Source: Escherichia coli
Lineage (GTDB): Bacteria; Pseudomonadota; Gammaproteobacteria; Enterobacterales; Enterobacteriaceae
Direction: 5' to 3' (one strand)
Assembly: GCF_044324875.1 (NCBI RefSeq)
Contig: NZ_CP172185.1
DNA length: 64,000 bases
Shown: piece after piece, positions 44,501-61,856 of the stretch
How positions within the stretch are numbered: the first letter of the stretch is position 1
How the letters are laid out: each line of letters begins with the position of its first letter
The notes under the pieces: generated by a model
The model's database searches: none
What the model saw: the letters and a program-made list of their open reading frames with translations, nothing else
Told to the model about the DNA's origin: nothing
Made by a program: the position numbers and the translations under genes

Positions 44501-45297
44501 ATCTTCTTGCAGTAAAACGAATCTTCCCGACCATGATTAGCGGGCAGGAGCGTCTTGCCTGTATGGATGATGCCGCCAGGCTGCGCGATGCTCTCGGCGT
44601 ACGACTACCAGAGTCACTGCCAGAGATTTATTTGCACCGAGTCAGTTACCCGCTTCGCGACCTCTTTCTGCGCTATCTCCGGGCTCATGCTCTGGTCACG
44701 TCTGAACAACTGGCTCATGAGTTTAGTCTCGGTACTGCCATTGTCGAAGAGCAACTTCAGCAACTGCGCGAACAGGGGCTGGTGATGAATCTGCAACAAG
44801 ACATCTGGGTGAGCGATGAAGTATTTCGTCGTCTGCGTTTGCGCTCGCTGCAAGCCGCCAGAGAAGCGACACGTCCCGTTGCGGCCACGACCTATGCGCG
44901 ATTGCTGCTGGAACGTCAGGGCGTATTACCCGCCACCGATGGTAGCCCGGCACTCTTTGCCTCAACATCGCCAGGCGTTTATGAGGGCGTGGATGGCGTG
45001 ATGCGGGTGATCGAACAGCTTGCTGGCGTTGGTTTACCCGCCTCACTCTGGGAAAGCCAGATCCTGCCTGCCCGCGTACGCGACTATTCGCCAGAAATGC
45101 TCGATGAATTACTGGCAACCGGTGCGGTTATCTGGTCGGGGCAAAAAAAGCTGGGTGAAGATGACGGTCTGGTGGCACTGCATCTACAGGAATATGCCGC
45201 AGAATCGTTCACTCCCGCCGAAGCAGATCAGGCGAATCGTTCGGCGCTGCAGCAAGCGATAATCGCTGTTCTGGCTGACGGAGGTGATCAGACATGA
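41584..45297 (+). pseudogene. lhr: ATP-dependent helicase Lhr, inactivated by an in-frame TAA at 43030-43032 and a 3' truncation at the prophage junction
   Basis: ORFs 41584..43032 and 43099..45297 are in the same frame and separated only by TAA; helicase motifs GSGKT and DEVH lie in the first part. The combined length is about 1237 codons against about 1538 expected. Confidence 0.8.
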
Positions 45298-48852: not shown

Positions 48853-49125
48853 TCAGTGCTTCCGGCTGACGGTGATGTGCAGGCCGCCTTCTGCAGTGGT
48901 TTCCATCCGGTACGGCACCTCATGCTCTGCCGTGTGGGTGAGTGTGTTCATCAGTACCTGCAGGGCAGCCGCCTTTCCGTTGGTTGCCACAATGGCCTGT
49001 GTGGTCATGCTGATTAGCGCCGTCAGGACGTGCTTCACATCGGTGAGGTCGCGGCATTCACACTCGTTGACATAGTGTTCAACAAGGGTTCGGGTGCGCT
49101 GTCGTGCTTCCTGTGGGGTAATCAT
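48853..49125 (-). CDS. Hypothetical phage early protein
   Basis: 90-aa ORF. Confidence 0.5.
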   Translation of the reverse strand: MITPQEARQRTRTLVEHYVNECECRDLTDVKHVLTALISMTTQAIVATNGKAAALQVLMNTLTHTAEHEVPYRMETTAEGGLHITVSRKH

Positions 49126-49316
49126 TGCGAGTCCTCCCTGTCAGGGCGGGAGAATTCCATGACGGGCACGTCTGCCGAAAAATGCTGGCTGCAGTACGGG
49201 CAGACCAGGGTGACGCGTACCGCAGGGATGTGGTATTTACCGGACATCACGGCGATGGCGCTGTGAAAACGCAGGGCTGTTATATCCCTCTCGCACTGAA
49301 TACATTTAAATATCAT
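49122..49316 (-). CDS. Small zinc-ribbon-like phage protein
   Basis: 64 aa with two CxxC pairs (CIQC ... CPYC). Confidence 0.45.
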   Translation of the reverse strand: MIFKCIQCERDITALRFHSAIAVMSGKYHIPAVRVTLVCPYCSQHFSADVPVMEFSRPDREDSQ

Positions 49317-49413
49317 GATTTAATTCTCCTCTGTTTCCGGCGTGCAGAAGCCCGCGGCGCTGACGCCGGAATAAAAAAGAAAATGTTTTTATTAAATAAT
49401 TAACGTGGTGTGT

Positions 49414-50243: not shown

Positions 50244-51437
50244 TTAAACTCCTTTGACAACGTCAGCGTTGACCTGTGGAACCCCGATTTCAGCGGCCAG
50301 ATTCATGGCGGCTATTACCAGGTTACTGACGGCCAGCGGATACAGCAGGCTGACCATATTTTTACGATGACTTCCCGGATTGCTCAGGCGGGCACGTATG
50401 GCATCCACTGCGCTGGCGTCCATAATGTCCGTCAGTTGTTTACCGGCCCGTTGCAGTTTGAACGTCAGAAATTCTTCAAGGTTATTGTCCAGAGGCAGAA
50501 GTTCGACCACCTCACAGCGCTGAACGACTTCACGGACTTCCATATTGCGTTCAGACAGTTTTGTCGCCAGTTCCGGCTGGCCAATCAGCACGATGGACAG
50601 CAGTTTTTTGAAACCGGACTCCAGCTCAAAAAAGCGTTTGAGGTGTTTCAGTGTCGGAATGGGCAGACTGTGGGCCTCCTCAATCACCAGAACGTGGCTG
50701 AACCCCGCCTGGCTGCTGTCTTTCAGGACGCGATGCAACTGGCGAAAGCGGGCGTCCTGACTGCGTCTGATGCTTTCCAGTGGTGCGATGGTACTGATAA
50801 TGGCTTCGGCAATAGCTGCTGCCTTCAGGGTTTTCCCTTTCACATCGTTGTCTTCCATAGCGATGATGTATGGCTCGATAACAATTACCGGCGCATTCTC
50901 GCGGTTAATACGTTCAGTCAGGTCGCGGCGCAGCGTGGATTTACCCGCACCGGACTCACCGATGACGGCCATAAACCCACCATGACGGGCTGTCTGGTAC
51001 AGCGCCTCACGCACGTAGCGAATGTCCGGGGTGGTGAACACATCATCAGAACCCTGCATGGCTTCATCGGCGAACGGGTCACGGAAAAGACCAAACGCTT
51101 TTTTGGTTGCTGGAAATAACACCTGTTTTTTGAGTAACATATTCTCTTCCTCACTGAGGCTCGTTTTATCTGTGGTACCCGCTGTACGGGGCGTGGCCGC
51201 GCCCTGTACAGCATCAAAACTCTTCGTTGTATCAATCCCCTGACTTTCCAGCCAGGACGCAAGACGCCGGCGCACTTCTCCGGGGCTGGTGCGGGGCCAC
51301 GCGTTATGATTCACAATCTGGGCCAGCGTGGCCTCAGAAACATCGACAGCTCTCGCCGCCACCGCCTGTGGAATACGGGCCTCTTTCAGTTGCTGCTTCA
51401 GTACCAGCATGTTTCCCTCCTCAGTTGCCGTTAACAA
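50244..51437 (-). CDS. Transposition helper ATPase (MuB-like, AAA+)
   Basis: 397 aa; N-terminal HTH-like region then Walker A GESGAGKST and Walker B VLVIEEAH; start overlaps the transposase stop. Confidence 0.8.
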   Translation of the reverse strand: MLTATEEGNMLVLKQQLKEARIPQAVAARAVDVSEATLAQIVNHNAWPRTSPGEVRRRLASWLESQGIDTTKSFDAVQGAATPRTAGTTDKTSLSEEENMLLKKQVLFPATKKAFGLFRDPFADEAMQGSDDVFTTPDIRYVREALYQTARHGGFMAVIGESGAGKSTLRRDLTERINRENAPVIVIEPYIIAMEDNDVKGKTLKAAAIAEAIISTIAPLESIRRSQDARFRQLHRVLKDSSQAGFSHVLVIEEAHSLPIPTLKHLKRFFELESGFKKLLSIVLIGQPELATKLSERNMEVREVVQRCEVVELLPLDNNLEEFLTFKLQRAGKQLTDIMDASAVDAIRARLSNPGSHRKNMVSLLYPLAVSNLVIAAMNLAAEIGVPQVNADVVKGV

Positions 51438-53190
51438 TGCTGATAACGCTGCTGCGGGCCGGCGTGGTCAGCGTGGCCATGACTTCATCCAGTGCGGCTT
51501 CCGGTACGCCGTCCGGGTACTGTGCTGTTAACTGGCGGTAATGTTCCGGCGTCCAGGTCAGGCCGTCGGCGCTGAACTTATCGCGCAGGGCTTTCGCGGC
51601 CTCCACATGAGTCATGGGACGCTGTTCAGTGCGCGGTCCGCGTACGTCAGAGGCCTGACCACGCTTCGGTATACAGGCCGGAAGTGTGGCGTCATCAATA
51701 TGTTTATACGGGTCAAGCCGCCCGCCGAACGGCAGCGCCTTCGCCTTGCGTGCGGCAGCTGCATCTGCGGCGTTGTCTGTACCGGTGACCAGCGCTTCGG
51801 TTTCTTTTGCCGCCATCTGCGCCGGGGTTTCCGGCAGGGCTTTGTAACTTTCGCCAAATACCGCCGCGCCTTCAGCAAAGCCAAACTCGTTCTTTCTGAC
51901 CTCTTCGACCAGGAAGAACGTCTCGTGGCCGTCCTCACCGGTCAGAACCACCTGTGCCACATCGCTGCGCCACGGGTTACGGGTAATCATCAGTTTTTCA
52001 CCGACCAGTACGCCCGGTACCGTTGATACGTCAAATTCAGTGCCCCGGAACGAGACACGAAGTTTTGGCGTGACTTTGCGGAGTTCTGGTGCCGCCACAG
52101 CCAGTTCACGACATACCTCAACGGAAGGCGCTTTTTTCAGCTGCTCAGCAGTAATCTTCAGCCAGATATCCGTGCGGGTTTTACCGTGGCGGCTGTGAAC
52201 AGCCGTGGCGTTAAAGTGGCTGCGCCATTTCGCGGCCAGCGCGTTGAGTTCTTCCAGACTGTGAACCGGCCGGAACTTCAGACCCGGCTCCAGCTTGCGT
52301 TCGATAATGTCACGCGCCTTTTCCACCTGTCCGGTGGCGCGGGCGTTATGCGGCTTGTGCGCTATCAGGTCGATGCCCAGTGAGCGGCACATGTTTTTCG
52401 TCATACCCGCGGTGTTTGCCGAGCCGGGGTCGAGATAGAGTATTTTTGGCACGCCGTGCAGCACGTCTGCGCCGCCACGCTCCTGCATGGCGTTGATAAG
52501 CACAGAACACAGGTTCTCACCGGATTCCGCACCCGTCACATACTCAACGTAAATCCAGCCGCTGGCATGGTCGGTAATCTCGTAACTCCACACGCGGTCA
52601 CTGGCGATACGGGCAAGGTTAGCGGGCTTGTTTTTGTAGAATTTCGCGCTGTCCATCACCTGCAGCCCTTTATGTCCATTGCTCAGGTAGTAAAGCGTGC
52701 AGAGTGAGGCGTCAATCTGCCAGACATGATTGGGGTGCAGACTGGCCACTTCGGTATGCGGTGCAGGGGCATCCAGTTGTTCCGGGTGCAGGCCATAGTT
52801 ACGCAGGGCACGACTGATGGCATCTTCGGACAACGGGAAAAACTCACCGGTGGTTTCATCTGTTCTGCCTGCGGAGATAAAGCCGTTAGCCCGCAGGGTT
52901 TCCACTGCATCCGCGATGGAATAGAGACGCTTACCGTTCTTGCGGGTGGCCTCACGTAGTGTGGCAGATATCAGCGCGGCTTCGTCGCGGGTCAGGGTGC
53001 TGCGTCCGGCATCGGCGCGTTTTTTGCGTTTATCAGTCACAGAGACCTCCTTCAGCCTGCGCAGCAGAGTGGCGCGGGACATGCCAAGTTCAGCACAGGC
53101 AGCGTCGTATATTGCACCGCGTTTACCATGCCCCGCATTACGTGCCGCGCGGGCTGTTTCAACAAGTTTTTCAGTCAGTGCCGGGGTCAT
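51421..53190 (-). CDS. DDE (rve-type) transposase of the transposable phage, TnpA
   Basis: 589 aa; N-terminal HTH then an integrase-core-like region (HVWQIDASL...LYLDPGSANTA); followed by the AAA+ partner as in Mu A-B. Confidence 0.8.
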   Translation of the reverse strand: MTPALTEKLVETARAARNAGHGKRGAIYDAACAELGMSRATLLRRLKEVSVTDKRKKRADAGRSTLTRDEAALISATLREATRKNGKRLYSIADAVETLRANGFISAGRTDETTGEFFPLSEDAISRALRNYGLHPEQLDAPAPHTEVASLHPNHVWQIDASLCTLYYLSNGHKGLQVMDSAKFYKNKPANLARIASDRVWSYEITDHASGWIYVEYVTGAESGENLCSVLINAMQERGGADVLHGVPKILYLDPGSANTAGMTKNMCRSLGIDLIAHKPHNARATGQVEKARDIIERKLEPGLKFRPVHSLEELNALAAKWRSHFNATAVHSRHGKTRTDIWLKITAEQLKKAPSVEVCRELAVAAPELRKVTPKLRVSFRGTEFDVSTVPGVLVGEKLMITRNPWRSDVAQVVLTGEDGHETFFLVEEVRKNEFGFAEGAAVFGESYKALPETPAQMAAKETEALVTGTDNAADAAAARKAKALPFGGRLDPYKHIDDATLPACIPKRGQASDVRGPRTEQRPMTHVEAAKALRDKFSADGLTWTPEHYRQLTAQYPDGVPEAALDEVMATLTTPARSSVISIVNGN

Positions 53191-54811: not shown

Positions 54812-55000
54812 TCAGGCTGCCTGAGCTGTTGATTTCAGCCCCAGTTTCACGGCGATTTCATGGGATTTACCGTAACGTGCTTTGCTCTGCCCATTGAGAA
54901 CGCGGTATACCTCATTGCGGTTGTAGCCGTTTTCTTCTGCCCAGCGGGTGAAAGTGATCCCGCGCTGGCGGAAGAGAGCTTTGACTTGTTCTGCAGTCAT
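54812..55000 (-). CDS. Ner-like (Cro-analog) DNA-binding protein
   Basis: 62 aa; strong SD AAGGAG 8 bp upstream; spacing of G-T/S, NG, and KxxIAxxLG residues parallels Ner/Nlp; divergent from the repressor. Confidence 0.6.
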   Translation of the reverse strand: MTAEQVKALFRQRGITFTRWAEENGYNRNEVYRVLNGQSKARYGKSHEIAVKLGLKSTAQAA

Positions 55001-55100: not shown

Positions 55101-55439
55101 ATGATCGGGTTACGTATTAAAGAAGAAAGAGAGCGTCTATCTCTTACACAGCAAGGGTTGGCTGATGCTATCGGTGTGGCAAAGAGAACTTTTATTGATT
55201 GGGAAAAAGATCGCACTTCTCCTACTGCAGTGCAGTTATCTGCACTATCAGAAATCGGTGTAGATGTTTTGTATGTAGTTACTGGGGTGCGGAGTCAGCC
55301 TGTTGTTGCACCTTATATGTCACAAGAAAAGAAAGAGTTAATGGATGCATTCGACGAGATGAGCCCCGAACAACGGAGGGCAATTCTTGAGGTCGGCAAA
55401 GTCTTCATTCAACCCAAACCAAGCAAACTCGCAGGCTGA
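55101..55439 (+). CDS. Phage repressor, HTH_XRE (Cro/C1-type)
   Basis: Start at internal ATG (MIGLRIKEERERLSLTQQGLADAIGVAKRTFIDWEKDRTSP), 112 aa. Confidence 0.7.
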   Translation: MIGLRIKEERERLSLTQQGLADAIGVAKRTFIDWEKDRTSPTAVQLSALSEIGVDVLYVVTGVRSQPVVAPYMSQEKKELMDAFDEMSPEQRRAILEVGKVFIQPKPSKLAG

Positions 55440-55524: not shown

Positions 55525-55560
55525 ACCGGAAAGCACTGTACTTTCCGGTTATGGCTTTTA
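55525..55560. terminator. Terminator between repressor and dam
   Basis: Hairpin ACCGGAAAG..CTTTCCGGT followed by a T-rich tract. Confidence 0.45.
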
Positions 55561-56322
55561 GAAATTGCAGATCACCAGCTCACGGCGTGGAGTTGATTTG
55601 CCTGCCAGACTGTAGTTGATGTTCACTGTCTGTATGTTCAGTCCAGTGAACACCTCGCGCATCTGCGGGATGTCGTTCACCGAAATTATCATCTTTCCTC
55701 TGATGCACCGGGCCAGCTCTGCCAGCCGCGAGTAGTTCCCTTCAGGAAAATCCACACCATAGCCTTCTGTACCCAGATACGGCGGGTCACAGTAGAACAG
55801 CGTGTGCGGACGGTCATAGCGCTCAATGCACTGTTGCCAGTCCATGTGTTCTATCACCGTTCTGGAAAGCCGCAGGTGTGCCGCTGACAGTTCTTCCTCG
55901 ATACGCAGCAGGTTGAAGCGTGGCGGGGATGTGGTGGAGGTGCCGAAGCTGTGCTCTGCCACCTTGCCGCCAAACGCCTGCTTCTGGAGGTAGTAGAACC
56001 GTGCTGCACGCTGGATATCCGTCAGTGTTTCTGTCGGGGTGATCTGCAGCCATTTGTAGATCTGCCGGCTGACCAGCGCCCATTTGAACTGGCGGACAAA
56101 TTCTTCCAGATGATGTTTTACCACCCGATACAGATTTACCAGTTCACCATTGATATCGTTAATGACTTCGAGCTTACCAGGTGTCTTAAGAAAATAGAGC
56201 GCTGCTGCGCCGCAGAACGGCTCCACGTAACATTCATGCGCCGGAAACAGCGGCAGGATGTGTTTTGCCAGGCGACGTTTGCCACCAATCCATGGAACGA
56301 TGGGTAATGTCTGCATTTTCAT
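55558..56322 (-). CDS. dam: DNA adenine methyltransferase (Dam-like, no adjacent restriction gene)
   Basis: 254 aa; SAM motif EPFCGAAALYF and catalytic DPPY. Confidence 0.85.
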   Translation of the reverse strand: MKMQTLPIVPWIGGKRRLAKHILPLFPAHECYVEPFCGAAALYFLKTPGKLEVINDINGELVNLYRVVKHHLEEFVRQFKWALVSRQIYKWLQITPTETLTDIQRAARFYYLQKQAFGGKVAEHSFGTSTTSPPRFNLLRIEEELSAAHLRLSRTVIEHMDWQQCIERYDRPHTLFYCDPPYLGTEGYGVDFPEGNYSRLAELARCIRGKMIISVNDIPQMREVFTGLNIQTVNINYSLAGKSTPRRELVICNF

Positions 56323-56514
56323 AATCTGTAAGCCTTTTACAATTATTAAAAATATGGCAGGCTAGTCTGGTCTCGCGAGACTGACTGAACCCCGGTCGGC
56401 TCACAGCGCATTCCTGTGGGACGATGGCCAGCCCGGTGGGTCCGAAGCACCGGGCTGGTCGTTCTTTCATGATGCGGCAGGGATGAAGTGATTTCTGTTA
56501 ATGTGGTTTAGGGA

Positions 56515-56730
56515 TTATCCGGGGCGATTTTCTGACCTTATCTGGTCCAGGGCATAAGTGATCCCTTCTGCAAAAACAGAAGTATCAAACTGCTTTTGTA
56601 TTTCCTGAAAATGAACAGTGGCACGACAGACACTCAGTTCTCCGCGATGTAACCGGATAATATCTTCCAGAACATTGTTCACTGCTTCGGCACGGCGCTG
56701 ATGTTCTGTTAACGTTAATCGGGGATTCAT
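56515..56730 (-). CDS. Hypothetical 71-aa phage protein
   Basis: Strong SD AAGGAG 6 bp upstream of ATG; no family recognised. Confidence 0.55.
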   Translation of the reverse strand: MNPRLTLTEHQRRAEAVNNVLEDIIRLHRGELSVCRATVHFQEIQKQFDTSVFAEGITYALDQIRSENRPG

Positions 56731-57107
56731 GATGCACTCCTTAAATGATGATTTTTATGTACTCACCGGCAAAATATTCTGCCGATTACTGAACACGCAT
56801 CCGGCTCCTCAGGTTTTGATTTATTCTGGTTTTTTCGATATCCCGGACCAGGTTGATCACGACAGAAAAAGTGCCGGTATTTTATTGATACGCTGATATG
56901 GCTTCGGGATAACAGCTATATTCGTTACTCTCAGTTGCTGGCTGTGGGAGCGGCTGATGTCGTCCTCACGGAAAAAACGCTCTGTCTGCTCAATGCCATG
57001 CCGACCTTTCTGCAGCCCCGGCCCGTACCATTTAAAGAGTCACTTCTGGATGCAGTAAAAACCGGTGAAAATGCAGTCATCGCTGAATGCGTATCCCGGA
57101 TTATGCG

Positions 57108-57656
57108 TTACGTGTTTAATGAACGTAAGTGAGGTTTATCCGCTGTCTGCATAATCCCGATAGCCAGTGCGAGGGGAAGCAATTCCGGGGAAACTCTTTC
57201 AAACAGCGATTCCCATTCTCCTCTCGCCATCACTCTGTCCAGCCCGCCCTCCAGCTGCATTTCAGCAATCTTCCTGATTTCCCGGAACAACGCCGCTTTG
57301 ATCTCTTCATGCTCAGCTTTATTTTCCGGTGTCAGAATGTATTCGTCGAAGAACCGGGGAGGCTGGTTAACGGGGGGCATGTTCACCGGGATGTGTTCCT
57401 GTATCCCGTACTCCGGGGCTGAAAAACATTTTGTTGTCTGACCGGTGAGTTTGCGTAACACCTTCATGAGTTGCTCCTGAAGCAGCTCATTCGTCCGACA
57501 GATACGCTCGTCGTCCACAACTGCGGCATCGACAATGACGCTTTTTCCAAATTCCTTTTTCACCATCTCTTTTATACGCGTCAGAACGTAACTTTTACCG
57601 CTGCCTACAGGCCCGGACACTCTGACGGTGATGGTCGGCTTCGGTGTGACTGTCAT
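57108..57656 (-). CDS. P-loop NTPase-like protein of unknown function (182 aa)
   Basis: Start at internal ATG with SD AAGGAGA 7 bp upstream; Walker A GPVGSGKS at residues 14-21; divergent from the lysis cassette. Confidence 0.6.
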   Translation of the reverse strand: MTVTPKPTITVRVSGPVGSGKSYVLTRIKEMVKKEFGKSVIVDAAVVDDERICRTNELLQEQLMKVLRKLTGQTTKCFSAPEYGIQEHIPVNMPPVNQPPRFFDEYILTPENKAEHEEIKAALFREIRKIAEMQLEGGLDRVMARGEWESLFERVSPELLPLALAIGIMQTADKPHLRSLNT

Positions 57657-57787
57657 TCTGTATCTCCTTTGTGAGTGATCCAGCGTGTATTCTGCATACC
57701 CCGAACACGCCTCTCTCTTAACGCGCTTTAAAATCCTCCGCGCCACGCTTTTGCCATGCTGTCTCCACACAACAAGGAGACATTTTC

Positions 57788-58138
57788 ATGAAACCATTCA
57801 CTTCCCTTATCGTTGACGTACAAAAAACCCGCCTGCGTGGATGGCTTGTTGCGGCCGTGCTGCTGCTCCTCATCATCGCGCTGGTCTCACCCCAGCAGTT
57901 GCCGGTGGTGGTGTACAAGCTCTCTCTCATCTCCCTCGCCGCCGTGCTCGGCTACTGGCTGGACCGCTCACTCTTCCCGAAGGCCCGTCCGGGGCAGTAC
58001 CTGAAGCATGACGAGCGCCTCATGGCTGAGGGGCGCTGGCCCGTACAGACCGGCCTTCACCTGGTGTTTTCTGCTGCGTTAATCCGCCGTGCACTGATTG
58101 TTGCAGCTGTCTGTCTGGCTGTTGCGATGGGGCTTTAA
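57788..58138 (+). CDS. Putative holin (membrane protein, first late/lysis gene)
   Basis: 116 aa with 2-3 hydrophobic helices; AAGGAGA SD; immediately precedes the endolysin. Confidence 0.55.
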   Translation: MKPFTSLIVDVQKTRLRGWLVAAVLLLLIIALVSPQQLPVVVYKLSLISLAAVLGYWLDRSLFPKARPGQYLKHDERLMAEGRWPVQTGLHLVFSAALIRRALIVAAVCLAVAMGL

Positions 58139-58875: not shown

Positions 58876-59167
58876 CCTGCTAAAAAATCTGCCGTGGCGC
58901 AGTCTGCTGCTGGCAGTGCTCATAAATGCTTTTCTGATTGGACTTTATTACCTGGGCTACAAAAGTGCAAAATGGCATCTGAATCGATCGCAGTTTGGCA
59001 TTCGAATCGATCATGATTTGGCATCCATCTCCGATCACAGTTTGGCATCACAATCGATCACGATTTGGCATGCTTCCGATCATTGATTGGCATCCTGCCA
59101 GTCACTCCGGGAATTAACTCTTTTCACCACAGTCTCCATTGCCGTGTTTAAACCAGTGGAGACGTCA

Positions 59168-60733
59168 ATGTCCAGAAAGAGAAAATCCAGGAGCACTATG
59201 GAAACCTGTTTTAAGATCCTTCAGCTCAAGTTCGACAAGAAGCTGACTAACCGTTGTATCGGACTGACGTTACACATCAGCGCCTCAACCGTTTTTGAGG
59301 TTCTTGCCCGCTTCAAAGCCTCTTCTCTGTCATGGCCATTACCTGCTGATATATCCCATGACACGCTGGAGAAACTCATTTTTCCGCCCAAAGACACCTT
59401 TGCATCAGAGCTTGTAATGCCTGACATGTTGTACTTCGATACGGAAATGAGAAAACCAGGTGTGACGCGGCAACTGTTGTGGATGGAATACAAGGCACAG
59501 GCGGGTAACAAAGCGATGGGATACTCGCACTTCTGCCGTTGCTACCGGGAGTGGAAAAAAACGCGACGTCTCTCCATGCGCCAGGAGCATCGTGCCGGCG
59601 AAAAGCTTTTTATCGACTTCTGTGGTCCTACGGTTCCTGTTATTAATCCGGACACCGGTGAGATACGCCGCGTGGCAATCTTCGTGGCCGTAATGGGGGC
59701 GTCCAACTATACCTACGTTGAAGCGTGCGAAGGTCAGGACATGATGTCATGGTTAAATGCCCACAGCCGTTGCCTGACCTTCCTGGGCGGCGTACCGAAG
59801 CTGCTCATCCCCGATAACCTCAGAAGCGCAGTGAAAAAGGCCGATCGATATGAGCCTGTCATCAACGACAGTTATCAGGCACTGGCTGAGCACTATGGCA
59901 CGGTTATCATCCCGGCCCGACCACGCAAACCTAAAGATAAACCAAAAGCAGAAAACGGCGTCCTCATCGTTGAACGATGGCTTCTTGCCCGCATCCGTAA
60001 TGAAACCTTCCACACGCTCAGGGCGCTGAATGCGCGCCTTAGGGAGTTACTGACAGACATGAATAACCGGCCAATGAAGGGGTACGGCAATCAAACCCGT
60101 GCAGAACGCTTCCGCATACTGGATGCGCCAGCACTCTCTCCGCTGCCTCTGGCACCTTATGAATACACGGAATACAAAGCTGTGAAGGTTGGCCCTGACT
60201 ACCACGTTGAATATGCCCGTCACTGGTACTCCGTTCCACACGAACTGGTCGGTCAGCGTCTGTCACTGAAGGCGGGGCAGTCGGTGGTACAGCTCTGGCA
60301 CAAGGGGCAGTGTGTGGCGCAACATCCGCGCAGCACACATGAATATAAACACACAACCAATCCGCTTCACATGCCAGAGCGCCACCGGCAGCACGGGACA
60401 TGGACACCGGAACGCCTGATCGAGCAGGGAAAACGTACGGGCCCGTCCACAGGCCGGGTGGTTGAATCCATGCTGAAGGCAAAACCCCATCCGGAACTGG
60501 CTTATCGTGCAGTTCTGGGGCTGCTGGCACTTCAGAAAAAATACGGCCCGGAACGGCTGGAAAAGGCCTGTTACGTTGCCCTGCACTATAACGCCCCTGA
60601 CAGACGCTTTATCGACAATCTGCTGCGTCACCATCGGGAGAACCTGGAGCTTCCATTATCCCGCCAGGGCGAACAACATCCGGCATATGCTTCAGAGCAT
60701 GAAAACCTGCGTGGTCCGGGCTACTACCACTGA
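59168..60733 (+). CDS. istA: IS21-family transposase IstA
   Basis: N-terminal HTH, DDE core; alternative start at 59198 (METCF...) has an AGGAG SD. Confidence 0.8.
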   Translation: MSRKRKSRSTMETCFKILQLKFDKKLTNRCIGLTLHISASTVFEVLARFKASSLSWPLPADISHDTLEKLIFPPKDTFASELVMPDMLYFDTEMRKPGVTRQLLWMEYKAQAGNKAMGYSHFCRCYREWKKTRRLSMRQEHRAGEKLFIDFCGPTVPVINPDTGEIRRVAIFVAVMGASNYTYVEACEGQDMMSWLNAHSRCLTFLGGVPKLLIPDNLRSAVKKADRYEPVINDSYQALAEHYGTVIIPARPRKPKDKPKAENGVLIVERWLLARIRNETFHTLRALNARLRELLTDMNNRPMKGYGNQTRAERFRILDAPALSPLPLAPYEYTEYKAVKVGPDYHVEYARHWYSVPHELVGQRLSLKAGQSVVQLWHKGQCVAQHPRSTHEYKHTTNPLHMPERHRQHGTWTPERLIEQGKRTGPSTGRVVESMLKAKPHPELAYRAVLGLLALQKKYGPERLEKACYVALHYNAPDRRFIDNLLRHHRENLELPLSRQGEQHPAYASEHENLRGPGYYH

Positions 60734-60749
60734 CAGAAGGAACAACAGT

Positions 60750-61505
60750 ATGAGTGATAACCTGTTAAACAAACTGACCCAACTGAAACTCCCGGCGATG
60801 GCCGGGAGCCTGATACGGCAGCGGGAAACGCCTCAGACCTACGACGAACTGTCGTTCGAGGAAAGGCTGACGCTGCTGGTTGATGACGAGCTTCTGAGCA
60901 GGGAAAACAGCCGTGTGGCACGGTTGAGAAAAAATGCCGGCCTGAAATACCAGGCAACACCGGAAGGGCTGCGCTATCCGGCCTCAAGAGGTCTGCGGGC
61001 TGAACAGATGAGAGAACTGCTGAACGGCCACTACATAACCCACAGGAAAAACCTGCTGATAACCGGTCCGACAGGATGTGGCAAGAGCTGGATAGCCAAT
61101 GCGCTGGGCGAACAGGCATGTCGACAGAAACACAGCGTCCGGTACTGTAGAACCGGGCGATTACTGGAACAACTGGCTCAGGGACGTGTTGATGGCAGCT
61201 GGCTGAAATATCTGAAACAGTTGCAAAAAATACAGGTTCTAATCCTGGACGATCTGGGGCTGGAACAGTTAAGTAACGCCCAGTGTAATGACCTTCTGGA
61301 GCTCATAGAGGATCGTTACGGACAAAGCAGCACGATAGTGGTAAGCCAGTTCCCGGTAGATAAATGGCATGGTCTGATGGAGAACCCAACAACAGCAGAT
61401 GCCATCCTGGACAGACTGGTACATAACTCACACCGAGTGGTCCTTCAGGGAGAGTCACTGAGGAAAAATCCCCCGGTAGTGGAAAGCAGCGAAAAAACGC
61501 GTTAA
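60750..61505 (+). CDS. istB: IS21-family helper ATPase IstB
   Basis: 251 aa; Walker A GPTGCGKS and Walker B LILDDLG; start at internal ATG (MSDNLLNKLTQLKLPAMAGS). Confidence 0.85.
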   Translation: MSDNLLNKLTQLKLPAMAGSLIRQRETPQTYDELSFEERLTLLVDDELLSRENSRVARLRKNAGLKYQATPEGLRYPASRGLRAEQMRELLNGHYITHRKNLLITGPTGCGKSWIANALGEQACRQKHSVRYCRTGRLLEQLAQGRVDGSWLKYLKQLQKIQVLILDDLGLEQLSNAQCNDLLELIEDRYGQSSTIVVSQFPVDKWHGLMENPTTADAILDRLVHNSHRVVLQGESLRKNPPVVESSEKTR

Positions 61506-61856
61506 AAAGCGGTAGAAAAAGTTAAGTTCCCGGTTGATCGAATGGATGCGAATCGCTGATCGGACTTCGATGCCAATCCGTGATCGAATAGAGCGGAATA
61601 CGCAAAAGCGGGCATGAAAACGCCACGCGCGACGGCGATAAGGCGATCAGTGAGTTGCAGTCAGCATTCGACACATACAAAACGGAGCAGGCAATGCTTG
61701 AGAACGCTGCATTGCGAGCATGGGCAAAACGGTATCAGGAGCAGGTGGCCGCTGGGCAGCAGGCTGAGGCCGGTTATCTTGAGCAGATTGCTCAACTGGA
61801 GAGTCAGAACAAACAACTACAGGGGCAAATTAACGATGTCACACAGCGCTGGATTG

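Follow-up and report, generated by a model that had tools for sequence, protein, structure and literature searches.

A 64,000-nucleotide stretch of Escherichia coli DNA (contig NZ_CP172185.1 of assembly GCF_044324875.1; hereafter the window) carries a BcepMu-like transposable prophage with a DNA adenine methylase gene, here called dam. It encodes an orphan Dam-family methylase and is a backbone gene of BcepMu-like transposable prophages in enterobacteria. By itself it is ordinary for a Mu-type prophage and already annotated. We found that its consistent partner is a non-coding element directly upstream, which probably controls it: a conserved, covarying structure on the strand opposite the dam leader that resembles the counter-transcribed RNAs (ctRNAs) of plasmids. 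The initial annotation of the locus, which joined dam, a 71-aa open reading frame (ORF) and a P-loop gene into one block, overlooked this element (56323-56470), which lies inside the region that it described. Orphan methylases are common in phages and usually dismissed as anti-restriction genes, and to our knowledge the silencing of such potentially harmful enzymes in a lysogen is known in detail only for mom of phage Mu. The value of the locus lies in the non-coding element, which points to ctRNA-type control, a known kind, on a new kind of target and in many phage lineages; one RNA element is inherited with one methylase clade across unrelated phage types and hosts.

The conserved element upstream of dam

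About 60 related loci were gathered in four ways: with exact DNA words from the region upstream of dam (47 viral contigs), from species-representative genomes (Pantoea, Citrobacter, Mixta, Buttiauxella, Erwinia, Limnobaculum and others), from annotated records and, independently, with the Dam protein. Mapping the window proteins onto these loci gave three context types. In the no-cargo type, dam and the holin gene are divergent, with their ATG codons only about 250 nt apart. The E. coli type, to which the window belongs, holds the P-loop gene, the 71-aa ORF and sometimes a 134-aa ORF on the + strand (phrog_2266) between the dam module and the late promoter; the Klebsiella type has other cargo (phrog_5663) in the same slot. 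Dam is present in all related loci bar a few truncated copies, and dam with about 150 nt of upstream sequence forms a backbone conserved across the roughly 60 loci. The features of this backbone in the window are:

55558-56322, - strand: dam, encoding a 254-aa alpha-class N6-adenine methyltransferase
56323-56470, - strand: 5' leader of the dam mRNA, in which the anti-Shine-Dalgarno segment CUGUGAGCC (56406-56398) can pair with GGCUUACAG (56334-56326)
about 56348-56474, + strand, antisense to the dam 5' leader: structured element, candidate cis-antisense RNA of about 100-120 nt
56364-56386, + strand: palindromic hairpin
56400-56406 with 56414-56420, + strand: hairpin 2
56428-56438 with 56448-56458, + strand: terminator-like hairpin, followed by UCGUUCUUUCA (56459-56469)
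56316-56343, + strand: sigma-70-like promoter candidate for the antisense RNA (TTTTCA, 16 nt, TACAAT)
56469-56510, - strand: candidate dam promoter region, TAAACCACATTAACAG (56510-56495), 20 nt, CATCAT (56474-56469)

The region upstream of dam has three hairpins with variable loops. Its 148 nt (56323-56470) are 87% identical compared with 81% for the coding sequence, a comparison that is biased because many loci were found through this very region; unbiased megablast matches to Klebsiella-type records stop exactly at 56470. The fold z-score of the element is -4.0 on the + strand vs -2.65 on the - strand, and RNAalifold gives -51 kcal/mol (+ strand) vs -32 kcal/mol (- strand), 19 kcal/mol apart. 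In the enterobacterial sequences, all one-sided changes in the strongest stem (56428-56438/56448-56458) result in G.U on the + strand (C.A on the dam strand), and the UCGUUCUUUCA tract that follows is invariant on the + strand. A leader peptide or 78-aa ORF at 56234-56470 was rejected, since differences in loop length are not multiples of three, one allele stops after 22 codons and a ribosome-binding site (RBS) is missing. The GTCTCGCGAGAC palindrome was likewise rejected as a repeated operator or Mor site, as it occurs only once in the window.

The element was followed into distant phages with two covariance models, R1 built from enterobacterial sequences only and R2 built from the distant matches of R1. 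The window element is matched with 133.6 and 95.2 bits. R1 gave full-length matches on the antisense strand of the approximately 120 nt directly upstream of dam homologues that are only 64-74% identical and lie in quite dissimilar phages, among them VP882 (Vibrio) and phiE125 (Burkholderia). In a diverse set of loci that had been found via the Dam protein, R2 matches 62 of the 63 distant dam loci, and it also matches the reference phages B3, TJ1, KS9, VP882 and phiE125. In B3, TJ1 and their relatives the match lies upstream of a com-like gene that precedes dam. R2 finds nothing in BcepMu, which is without dam, and nothing elsewhere in the window. Its scores are about 85 bits on the antisense strand vs about 31 bits on the sense strand. 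Weaker R2 matches on the sense strand (27-35 bits) were seen about 70 nt further upstream in the Burkholderia-type loci L055 and L134-L141 (around 2278-2410); these may reflect another structure rich in hairpins, or GC-rich palindromes may have given rise to them as an artefact.

Pairing was quantified over 41 distinct sequences. The model pairs are formed in 86.8% of cells vs 68.1% in shuffles, and the covariation score is 0.538 vs 0.218 when shuffled, a value that none of 500 shuffles reached; slid registers gave 0.08-0.13. Two-sided changes occur in 34 of the 40 pairs. Hairpin 2 is paired to 98.6% and the terminator hairpin to 92.3%. Cells that pair only on the antisense strand number 179, vs 22 that pair only on the sense strand, and a U.G pair in hairpin 2 is kept in 31 of the 41 sequences. 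We thus find a conserved structure opposite the leader, covariation and strand-specific G.U pairs, the structural features expected of a cis-antisense RNA. In Burkholderia-type copies, the antisense strand aligns with the full length of the Rfam family RF00236 (ctRNA_pGA1), scoring 44.4 bits in one case (E 1.6e-5; gathering score 45) and 38.4 bits in phiE125; a further relative scores 29.5 bits. The element hence resembles RF00236 but is not a member by the Rfam criterion. It stands just outside an existing family and offers clean covariation for a new one.

These strand data bear on two simpler explanations. According to the first, which we consider unlikely, the element is the sense-strand dam leader only, a protein-binding or self-regulating switch like the mom leader that Com opens, and an antisense RNA does not exist. 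Such a view would account for the covarying helix between the anti-Shine-Dalgarno segment and the RBS region, whose G.U pairs lie on the sense strand, for the position of the element before com in the com-dam phages, where a leader is expected, and for an antisense promoter that is weak or unrecognisable in many lineages. It is at odds with the conserved U.G pairs of hairpins 1 and 2 on the antisense strand, where the sense strand has C.A mismatches (35 cells to 0 in hairpin 2, 56 to 11 in hairpin 1), with the pyrimidine or U tract that always follows hairpin 1 on the antisense strand, and with the fit of RF00236, a model of antisense RNAs, to that same strand; on the sense strand, the matches of the covariance model are much weaker.

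The second explanation takes the + strand hairpin as an intrinsic terminator that insulates the late operon from read-through on the repressor strand, the other conservation being incidental. The window and the no-cargo prophages do have the repressor gene (+ strand) on one side of the hairpin and the late promoter on the other. The element is, however, also found upstream of dam in phiE125, KS9, VP882 and B3-type phages, where dam is co-directional with its neighbors and no late promoter needs a shield on that side, and about 120 nt are conserved and covarying, which is more than one hairpin. We regard this explanation as very unlikely.

Leader, promoters and proposed control of dam

The dam leader appears to lock its own ribosome-binding region, as judged from predicted folds. 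In the minimum-free-energy fold, GGCUUACAG, which abuts the dam AUG and includes the GG of the RBS, is held by CUGUGAGCC, which consists of the 3' arm of hairpin 2 plus GCC. This leader helix occurs in nearly all lineages with covarying sequence (GUGAGCC/GGCUCAC, CUGCAAG/CUUGCAG, GUGAA..GCC/GGC.UUCAC and GCUGGCC/GGCCAGC; z about -2 to -6), and here the wobble pairs are those of the sense strand. Hairpin 2, with which the helix competes, contains a conserved C.A mismatch on this strand that weakens it.

On the opposite strand, the -35 hexamer of the candidate antisense promoter overlies the dam start codon, and the dam RBS falls within the spacer. The same geometry, with a 16-nt spacer and a -10 hexamer ending 4-5 nt before the start of the model, is seen in the window, in phiE125 (TTGCCA/TAAACT) and in locus L130 (TTTTCA/TATTAT); L130 also has a 17-bp stem with U8 behind it, and the terminator geometry, too, recurs in these three lineages. 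A conserved hexamer, TAGAAT/TAGGCT, in the 5' part of the model is an alternative -10. For dam itself, the upstream half of the candidate promoter, TAAACCACATTAACAG, is a degenerate copy of the late-promoter upstream element, and of 39 distinct upstream sequences, 35 have the arrangement TTAA[TC]AG, 20-21 nt, CAT[GC][AC]T ahead of the conserved block, irrespective of the upstream context. The dam promoter may thus mirror the holin promoter and perhaps share a Mor-type activator. The CTGTCTCC motif, common to two late promoters, is absent upstream of dam.

Taken together, we favor, with more confidence than doubt, the view that dam is a Mom-like DNA-modification gene under ctRNA-type control by an antisense RNA and its own leader, and that it is probably silent in the lysogen. 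The + strand would give rise to a ctRNA-like transcript, about 100-120 nt long, whose complement in the dam leader extends from about -28 to -148. Together with the locked leader, this transcript would keep dam off in the lysogen, the pairing of the leader with the ribosome-binding region setting translation to off by default; alternatively, the antisense RNA could gate translation by re-pairing the leader. During lytic growth, dam would be transcribed from the promoter just upstream of the conserved block, and the methylase would modify the replicating phage DNA before packaging, so that the progeny resist host restriction. The methylase clade is found at the ends of late operons or, in B3 and TJ1, behind com, which corresponds to the place and the control logic of mom in Mu; its likely job is therefore the methylation of phage DNA, and an anti-restriction role is the most likely one by this analogy.

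Because the antisense RNA would cover the anti-Shine-Dalgarno segment and not the RBS, an activating role is possible as well. The element and the self-sequestering leader might then represent an undescribed dedicated RNA control module for one methylase clade, in which the antisense RNA could activate as an RNA counterpart of the Com protein of Mu, and which would have accompanied the gene in Mu-like, lambda-like and telomere phages of gamma- and beta-proteobacteria. This we put forward only tentatively.

A further alternative, raised in part by the initial annotation, sees the methylase as a lysogenic-conversion or epigenetic gene that methylates host DNA, at GATC or elsewhere, and tunes host or phage transcription or transposition. 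The enzyme does pass the cut-off of a Dam-family model, Dam methylation is established to regulate Mu mom, IS10 and Tn5, and a homologous region has high read counts in a Burkholderia lysogen. Yet E. coli already owns Dam, so that a second GATC enzyme adds nothing, and the residues with which E. coli Dam reads GATC are not conserved in the window enzyme. The placement of the clade elsewhere, at late-operon ends or behind com, also disagrees with such a role, and the elaborate, negative-looking control suits a gene that is kept off in lysogens. We consider this alternative quite improbable.

Returning to the antisense control that we favor, several observations weigh against it. The antisense transcript is a predicted one: its promoter and terminator match at consensus level only, just 26% of lineages (4% of shuffles) have a promoter with 9 or more matches out of 12, so that the transcription start is not pinned, and Klebsiella-type copies carry a G at position 2 of the -10 hexamer. 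In most lineages the terminator tail is pyrimidine-rich with no clean U run. Pairing is weak in helices 1 and 3 of the model (79.5% and 67.6%), and the alignments A6 and A7 were fitted to the antisense-strand model, which favors G.U over A.C. Rfam gives no family for the window copy, which RF00236 does not match at E<=10, and no locus, including 0 of 20 further loci, reaches the RF00236 gathering score of 45. The residues aligned with K9 and R124 of E. coli Dam are Pro and Ala. Finally, published RNA-seq data from a phi1026b lysogen show a high read count for a gene listed as "putative DNA adenine methylase" (PMC2920897), which would argue against silence in the lysogen unless the reads stem from the antisense RNA.

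If the proposed control holds, the timing of DNA modification in phages would have a general mechanism that can be put to the test. The element can serve as an annotation marker for this methylase clade, and methylome studies should be read with caution, as a prophage enzyme of this type may be invisible in lysogens.

Methylase, cargo genes and prophage

The dam, 71-aa and P-loop ORFs are genuine genes or ORFs and not chance ones. For dam, the initial call of a D12-class adenine methyltransferase with a DPPY motif is well founded. The product matches Pfam PF02086 (MethyltransfD12) with E 1.1e-28 and TIGR00571 ("dam") with 116.8 bits, only just above the cut-off of 114.85, as well as phrog_56 and a PADLOC type II methyltransferase model. 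DPPY (motif IV) lies at residues 179-182 and motif I, PFCGAAA (FxGxA), at residues 35-41, where it aligns with PFVGAGS of E. coli Dam; the N-terminal motif I gives the alpha-class order and places the enzyme in the D12/alpha class. The methylases of the phages B3 (ORF48), VP882, phiE125 (gp27) and KS9 are 63-66% identical to it, and the best PDB relatives are DpnM, E. coli Dam and T4 Dam (E 6.5e-17 to 4e-14). M.EcoGII and M.EcoGI were rejected as relatives, being beta-class and unrelated, and so was the Hia5 family, which is another subfamily.

GATC specificity cannot be assumed for this enzyme. E. coli Dam reads GATC with the residues K9, L122, R124 and P134. In the HMMER alignment K9 is replaced by Pro, L122 by Lys and R124 by Ala, while P134 is retained. 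The recognition motif NGL-x-R-x-N of Dam reads GGKVAEH in the window enzyme, and the E. coli Dam equivalog NF008152 is matched with 67.2 bits vs a cut-off of 441, so that the enzyme falls outside that family. No usable information came from the literature on the specificity of the homologues in VP882 and phiE125 or on methylomes of E. coli strains that carry this prophage. In the PhiKM record PQ738613 (29908-30762), the dam coding sequence is 90 nt longer at the 5' end than with the RefSeq and window start; as this extension would enter the conserved non-coding element, the deposited start is probably too far upstream. The loci L009, L021, L065 and L058 keep the element, with dam truncated at about codon 25 or with divergence setting in just past the palindrome; these look like decaying copies.

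The other features of the prophage that surround the dam backbone are:

51421-53190, - strand: DDE transposase, within the early genes that include Mor, all on the - strand
54812-55000: Ner-like gene
55101-55439, + strand: helix-turn-helix (HTH) repressor
55525-55549, + strand: terminator-like hairpin with the tail TATGGCTTTT between the convergent repressor and dam genes, at the 3' end of both (repeat I15)
56515-56730, - strand: 71-aa ORF (p71), with the RBS AAGGAG at 56742-56737
56729-57132, + strand: relic of the 134-aa ORF (phrog_2266), with a 1-nt deletion from CTTTTTCTGGTCG to CTTTTTCTGTCG
57108-57656 (RefSeq start), - strand: P-loop ORF, phrog_3787, 182 aa
57716-57787, + strand: late promoter region of the lysis operon, TTAACGCGCTTTAAAATCC (57716-57734), 18 nt, CATGCT, GTCTCC, RBS, holin
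57788-58138, + strand: holin, followed on the + strand by the SLT lysis cassette and late genes

The gene order is that of BcepMu, and it confirms the placement of dam and the 71-aa ORF, both on the minus strand, with the repressor on one side and the late genes on the other. As had also been noted at the outset, this position does not exist in Mu; it is a variable region of BcepMu-type genomes. A nuclease gene is neither annotated in RefSeq nor detected by PADLOC within several kb of dam. The neighbors, namely the repressor, the 71-aa protein, the P-loop protein and the holin, show no nuclease or PADLOC restriction endonuclease match, and a type II restriction-modification system is thus not seen.

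A different picture emerged for the idea that dam belongs to a single accessory module with the P-loop gene and the 71-aa ORF, whose product would assist or regulate the methylase like Com or a C protein; we now give this idea hardly any credence. The three genes are indeed adjacent on the same strand, the strong Shine-Dalgarno sequence claimed for the 71-aa ORF is real (AAGGAG, six bases before the ATG), and small regulators precede the same methylase clade in B3 and TJ1. The distribution, which largely refutes the one-module view, tells otherwise: the 71-aa ORF occurs in 9 of 9 loci with the P-loop gene and in none without it, only in E. coli-type prophages, and it is missing from Klebsiella-type and no-cargo prophages that retain the same dam and upstream element. 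It travels with the P-loop gene and not with dam, from which it is separated by a 192-nt gap with its own regulatory element. The 71-aa ORF, the P-loop gene and the frameshifted third ORF are hence separate cargo unrelated to dam. This cargo is bracketed by two copies of the holin-promoter upstream element, TTAACGCGCTTTAAAATCC by the holin and the degenerate copy by dam, and the stretch that separates the dam module from the late promoter looks like a hotspot for cargo insertion.

The 71-aa protein is a hypothetical protein in RefSeq. The homology check suggested for it gave a full-length match to phrog_4490 and copies from E. coli only, none below 70% identity (in a word-indexed search of 5.8 billion proteins and a full HMMER scan of 1.84 billion representatives), and assigned no family: Pfam, NCBIfam and PADLOC gave no match. 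A tblastn search against phages found one record that carries it. The lone distant match in these searches, P0016, is a low-complexity eukaryotic repeat protein and spurious. AlphaFold2 predicts a three-helix bundle with moderate confidence (pLDDT 77.6), for which Foldseek found nothing below E 0.5 in PDB and BFVD. The protein has a single Cys, and it shows neither an HTH nor the Cys4 zinc finger of Com, a small protein known to accompany phage DNA-modification genes and encoded upstream of the dam homologues in B3 and TJ1. Its reading frame is open in most alleles; dN/dS is 0.56 vs 0.66 and 0.80 in the other frames, values that do not separate the frames. As a weak guess, it could be a late-expressed accessory that works with the P-loop protein.

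The P-loop ORF has the Walker A motif GPVGSGKS and only weak AAA/P-loop matches in Pfam. Among the PADLOC defence models it matches marginally, at the P-loop level only (SngB 6e-4, HerA 2e-3), and it is not assigned to a defence system. The 182-aa form of the window has lost 65 internal residues in frame compared with the common 247-aa form. Since the short form exists in a pair of alleles (99% and 84% identity), it may represent a functional variant and not a product of decay. The AlphaFold2 model is too poor to use (pLDDT 41.7). The phrog_2266 ORF is split into pieces of 55 and 65 aa in the window and intact in E. coli AREA_487 and other loci, so that the window cargo looks partly decayed.

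The prophage spans the window from 45285 to its end. The region described here is 100% identical in prophages of several E. coli chromosomes, including LH10-b-1, and is present in 555 of 5426 complete E. coli genomes; phage PhiKM (Bcepmuvirus) is 93% identical to the window prophage. The left end at 45285 is a TG end with TGATCAGACATGAGATAAATGAAG...CGTGAGATAAATAACG and repeated GAGATAAAT motifs, which are likely transposase-binding sites. LH10-b-1 has the same prophage in tnaB with a host flank unlike that of the window, which fits transpositional insertion. The two prophages are otherwise 99.99% identical and differ by an IS21-family insertion element at 58966-61602 (istA 59087-60733, istB to 61505), which sits inside the gene just 3' of the SLT endolysin and has flanks that overlap by 6 bp, suggesting a target duplication. 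The lysis cassette of the window prophage is probably disrupted by this element.

The arrangement of the late promoter is kept in all context types, and its motif is unique in the prophage. It consists of an imperfect palindrome, TTAA-N6-TTAA, about 18-21 nt, CATGCT and then GTCTCC. A comparison of late promoters in locus L001 (27290-27365 and 39553-39601) showed that a second late operon, upstream of a head protease-like gene, has ATTAAAATC...ACTGTCTCC in common with the holin promoter, and a third site, TTAAACGCCTTTAA, stands before a gpW-like baseplate gene. We regard these motifs as candidate Mor-binding sites.

Comparison with known systems

In BcepMu, gp18-gp20 occupy the same slot between repressor and holin, a variable accessory region of Bcepmuvirus genomes, but this slot holds neither dam nor the antisense element. 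At the level of the enzyme, E. coli Dam, T4 Dam and DpnM have the same fold family and motif order as the window methylase and are distant in sequence. In other Mu-like prophages, Mom is replaced by the non-specific alpha-class DPPY enzymes Hia5, Hin1523 and Nma1821, which guard DNA against many restriction enzymes (PMC3299994). B3 ORF48, which belongs to the clade of the window enzyme, is reported to be absent from the 1000 nearest relatives of Hia5 (PMC3299994), and the relaxed specificity can therefore not be transferred.

Pseudomonas phage B3 (ORF47-ORF48) and Curvibacter phage TJ1 are closer. Both are transposable, carry the same methylase clade with post-transcriptional control before the methylase, and have the same antisense-strand element upstream of com-dam (34 and 37.7 bits). 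They differ in the presence of a com-like gene, and the window dam, which has the repressor on one side and the late genes on the other, is divergent from the lysis operon and not located within or behind tail genes. A tblastn search of the window prophage with the Com proteins of B3, TJ1 and Mu found nothing. By cysteine pattern, the sole Com-like candidate of the prophage is an early-region ORF at about 49125-49319 (- strand), which has two zinc-ribbon-like CxxC pairs (KCIQCERD and VCPYCSQH) and is without sequence similarity to Com.

In the com-mom system of Mu, a modification gene that is potentially harmful to the host is expressed late, and its RBS is locked in an mRNA hairpin that is handled by a dedicated factor. 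The window locus is alike in that a DNA-modification gene of a transposable phage appears to have its RBS in a leader structure. Mom, however, is an unrelated enzyme (acetamido-adenine), and in place of the zinc finger protein Com we find an apparent antisense RNA together with the leader. For the window dam, dependence on Mor/C is only presumed.

The closest parallel to the element itself is provided by RF00236 and the plasmid ctRNAs, which are also about 80-120 nt long, antisense to an mRNA leader and built of two stem-loops with a terminator tail. The target is different, a phage methylase instead of plasmid rep, and the window element is longer and has an extra palindromic hairpin at its 5' end.

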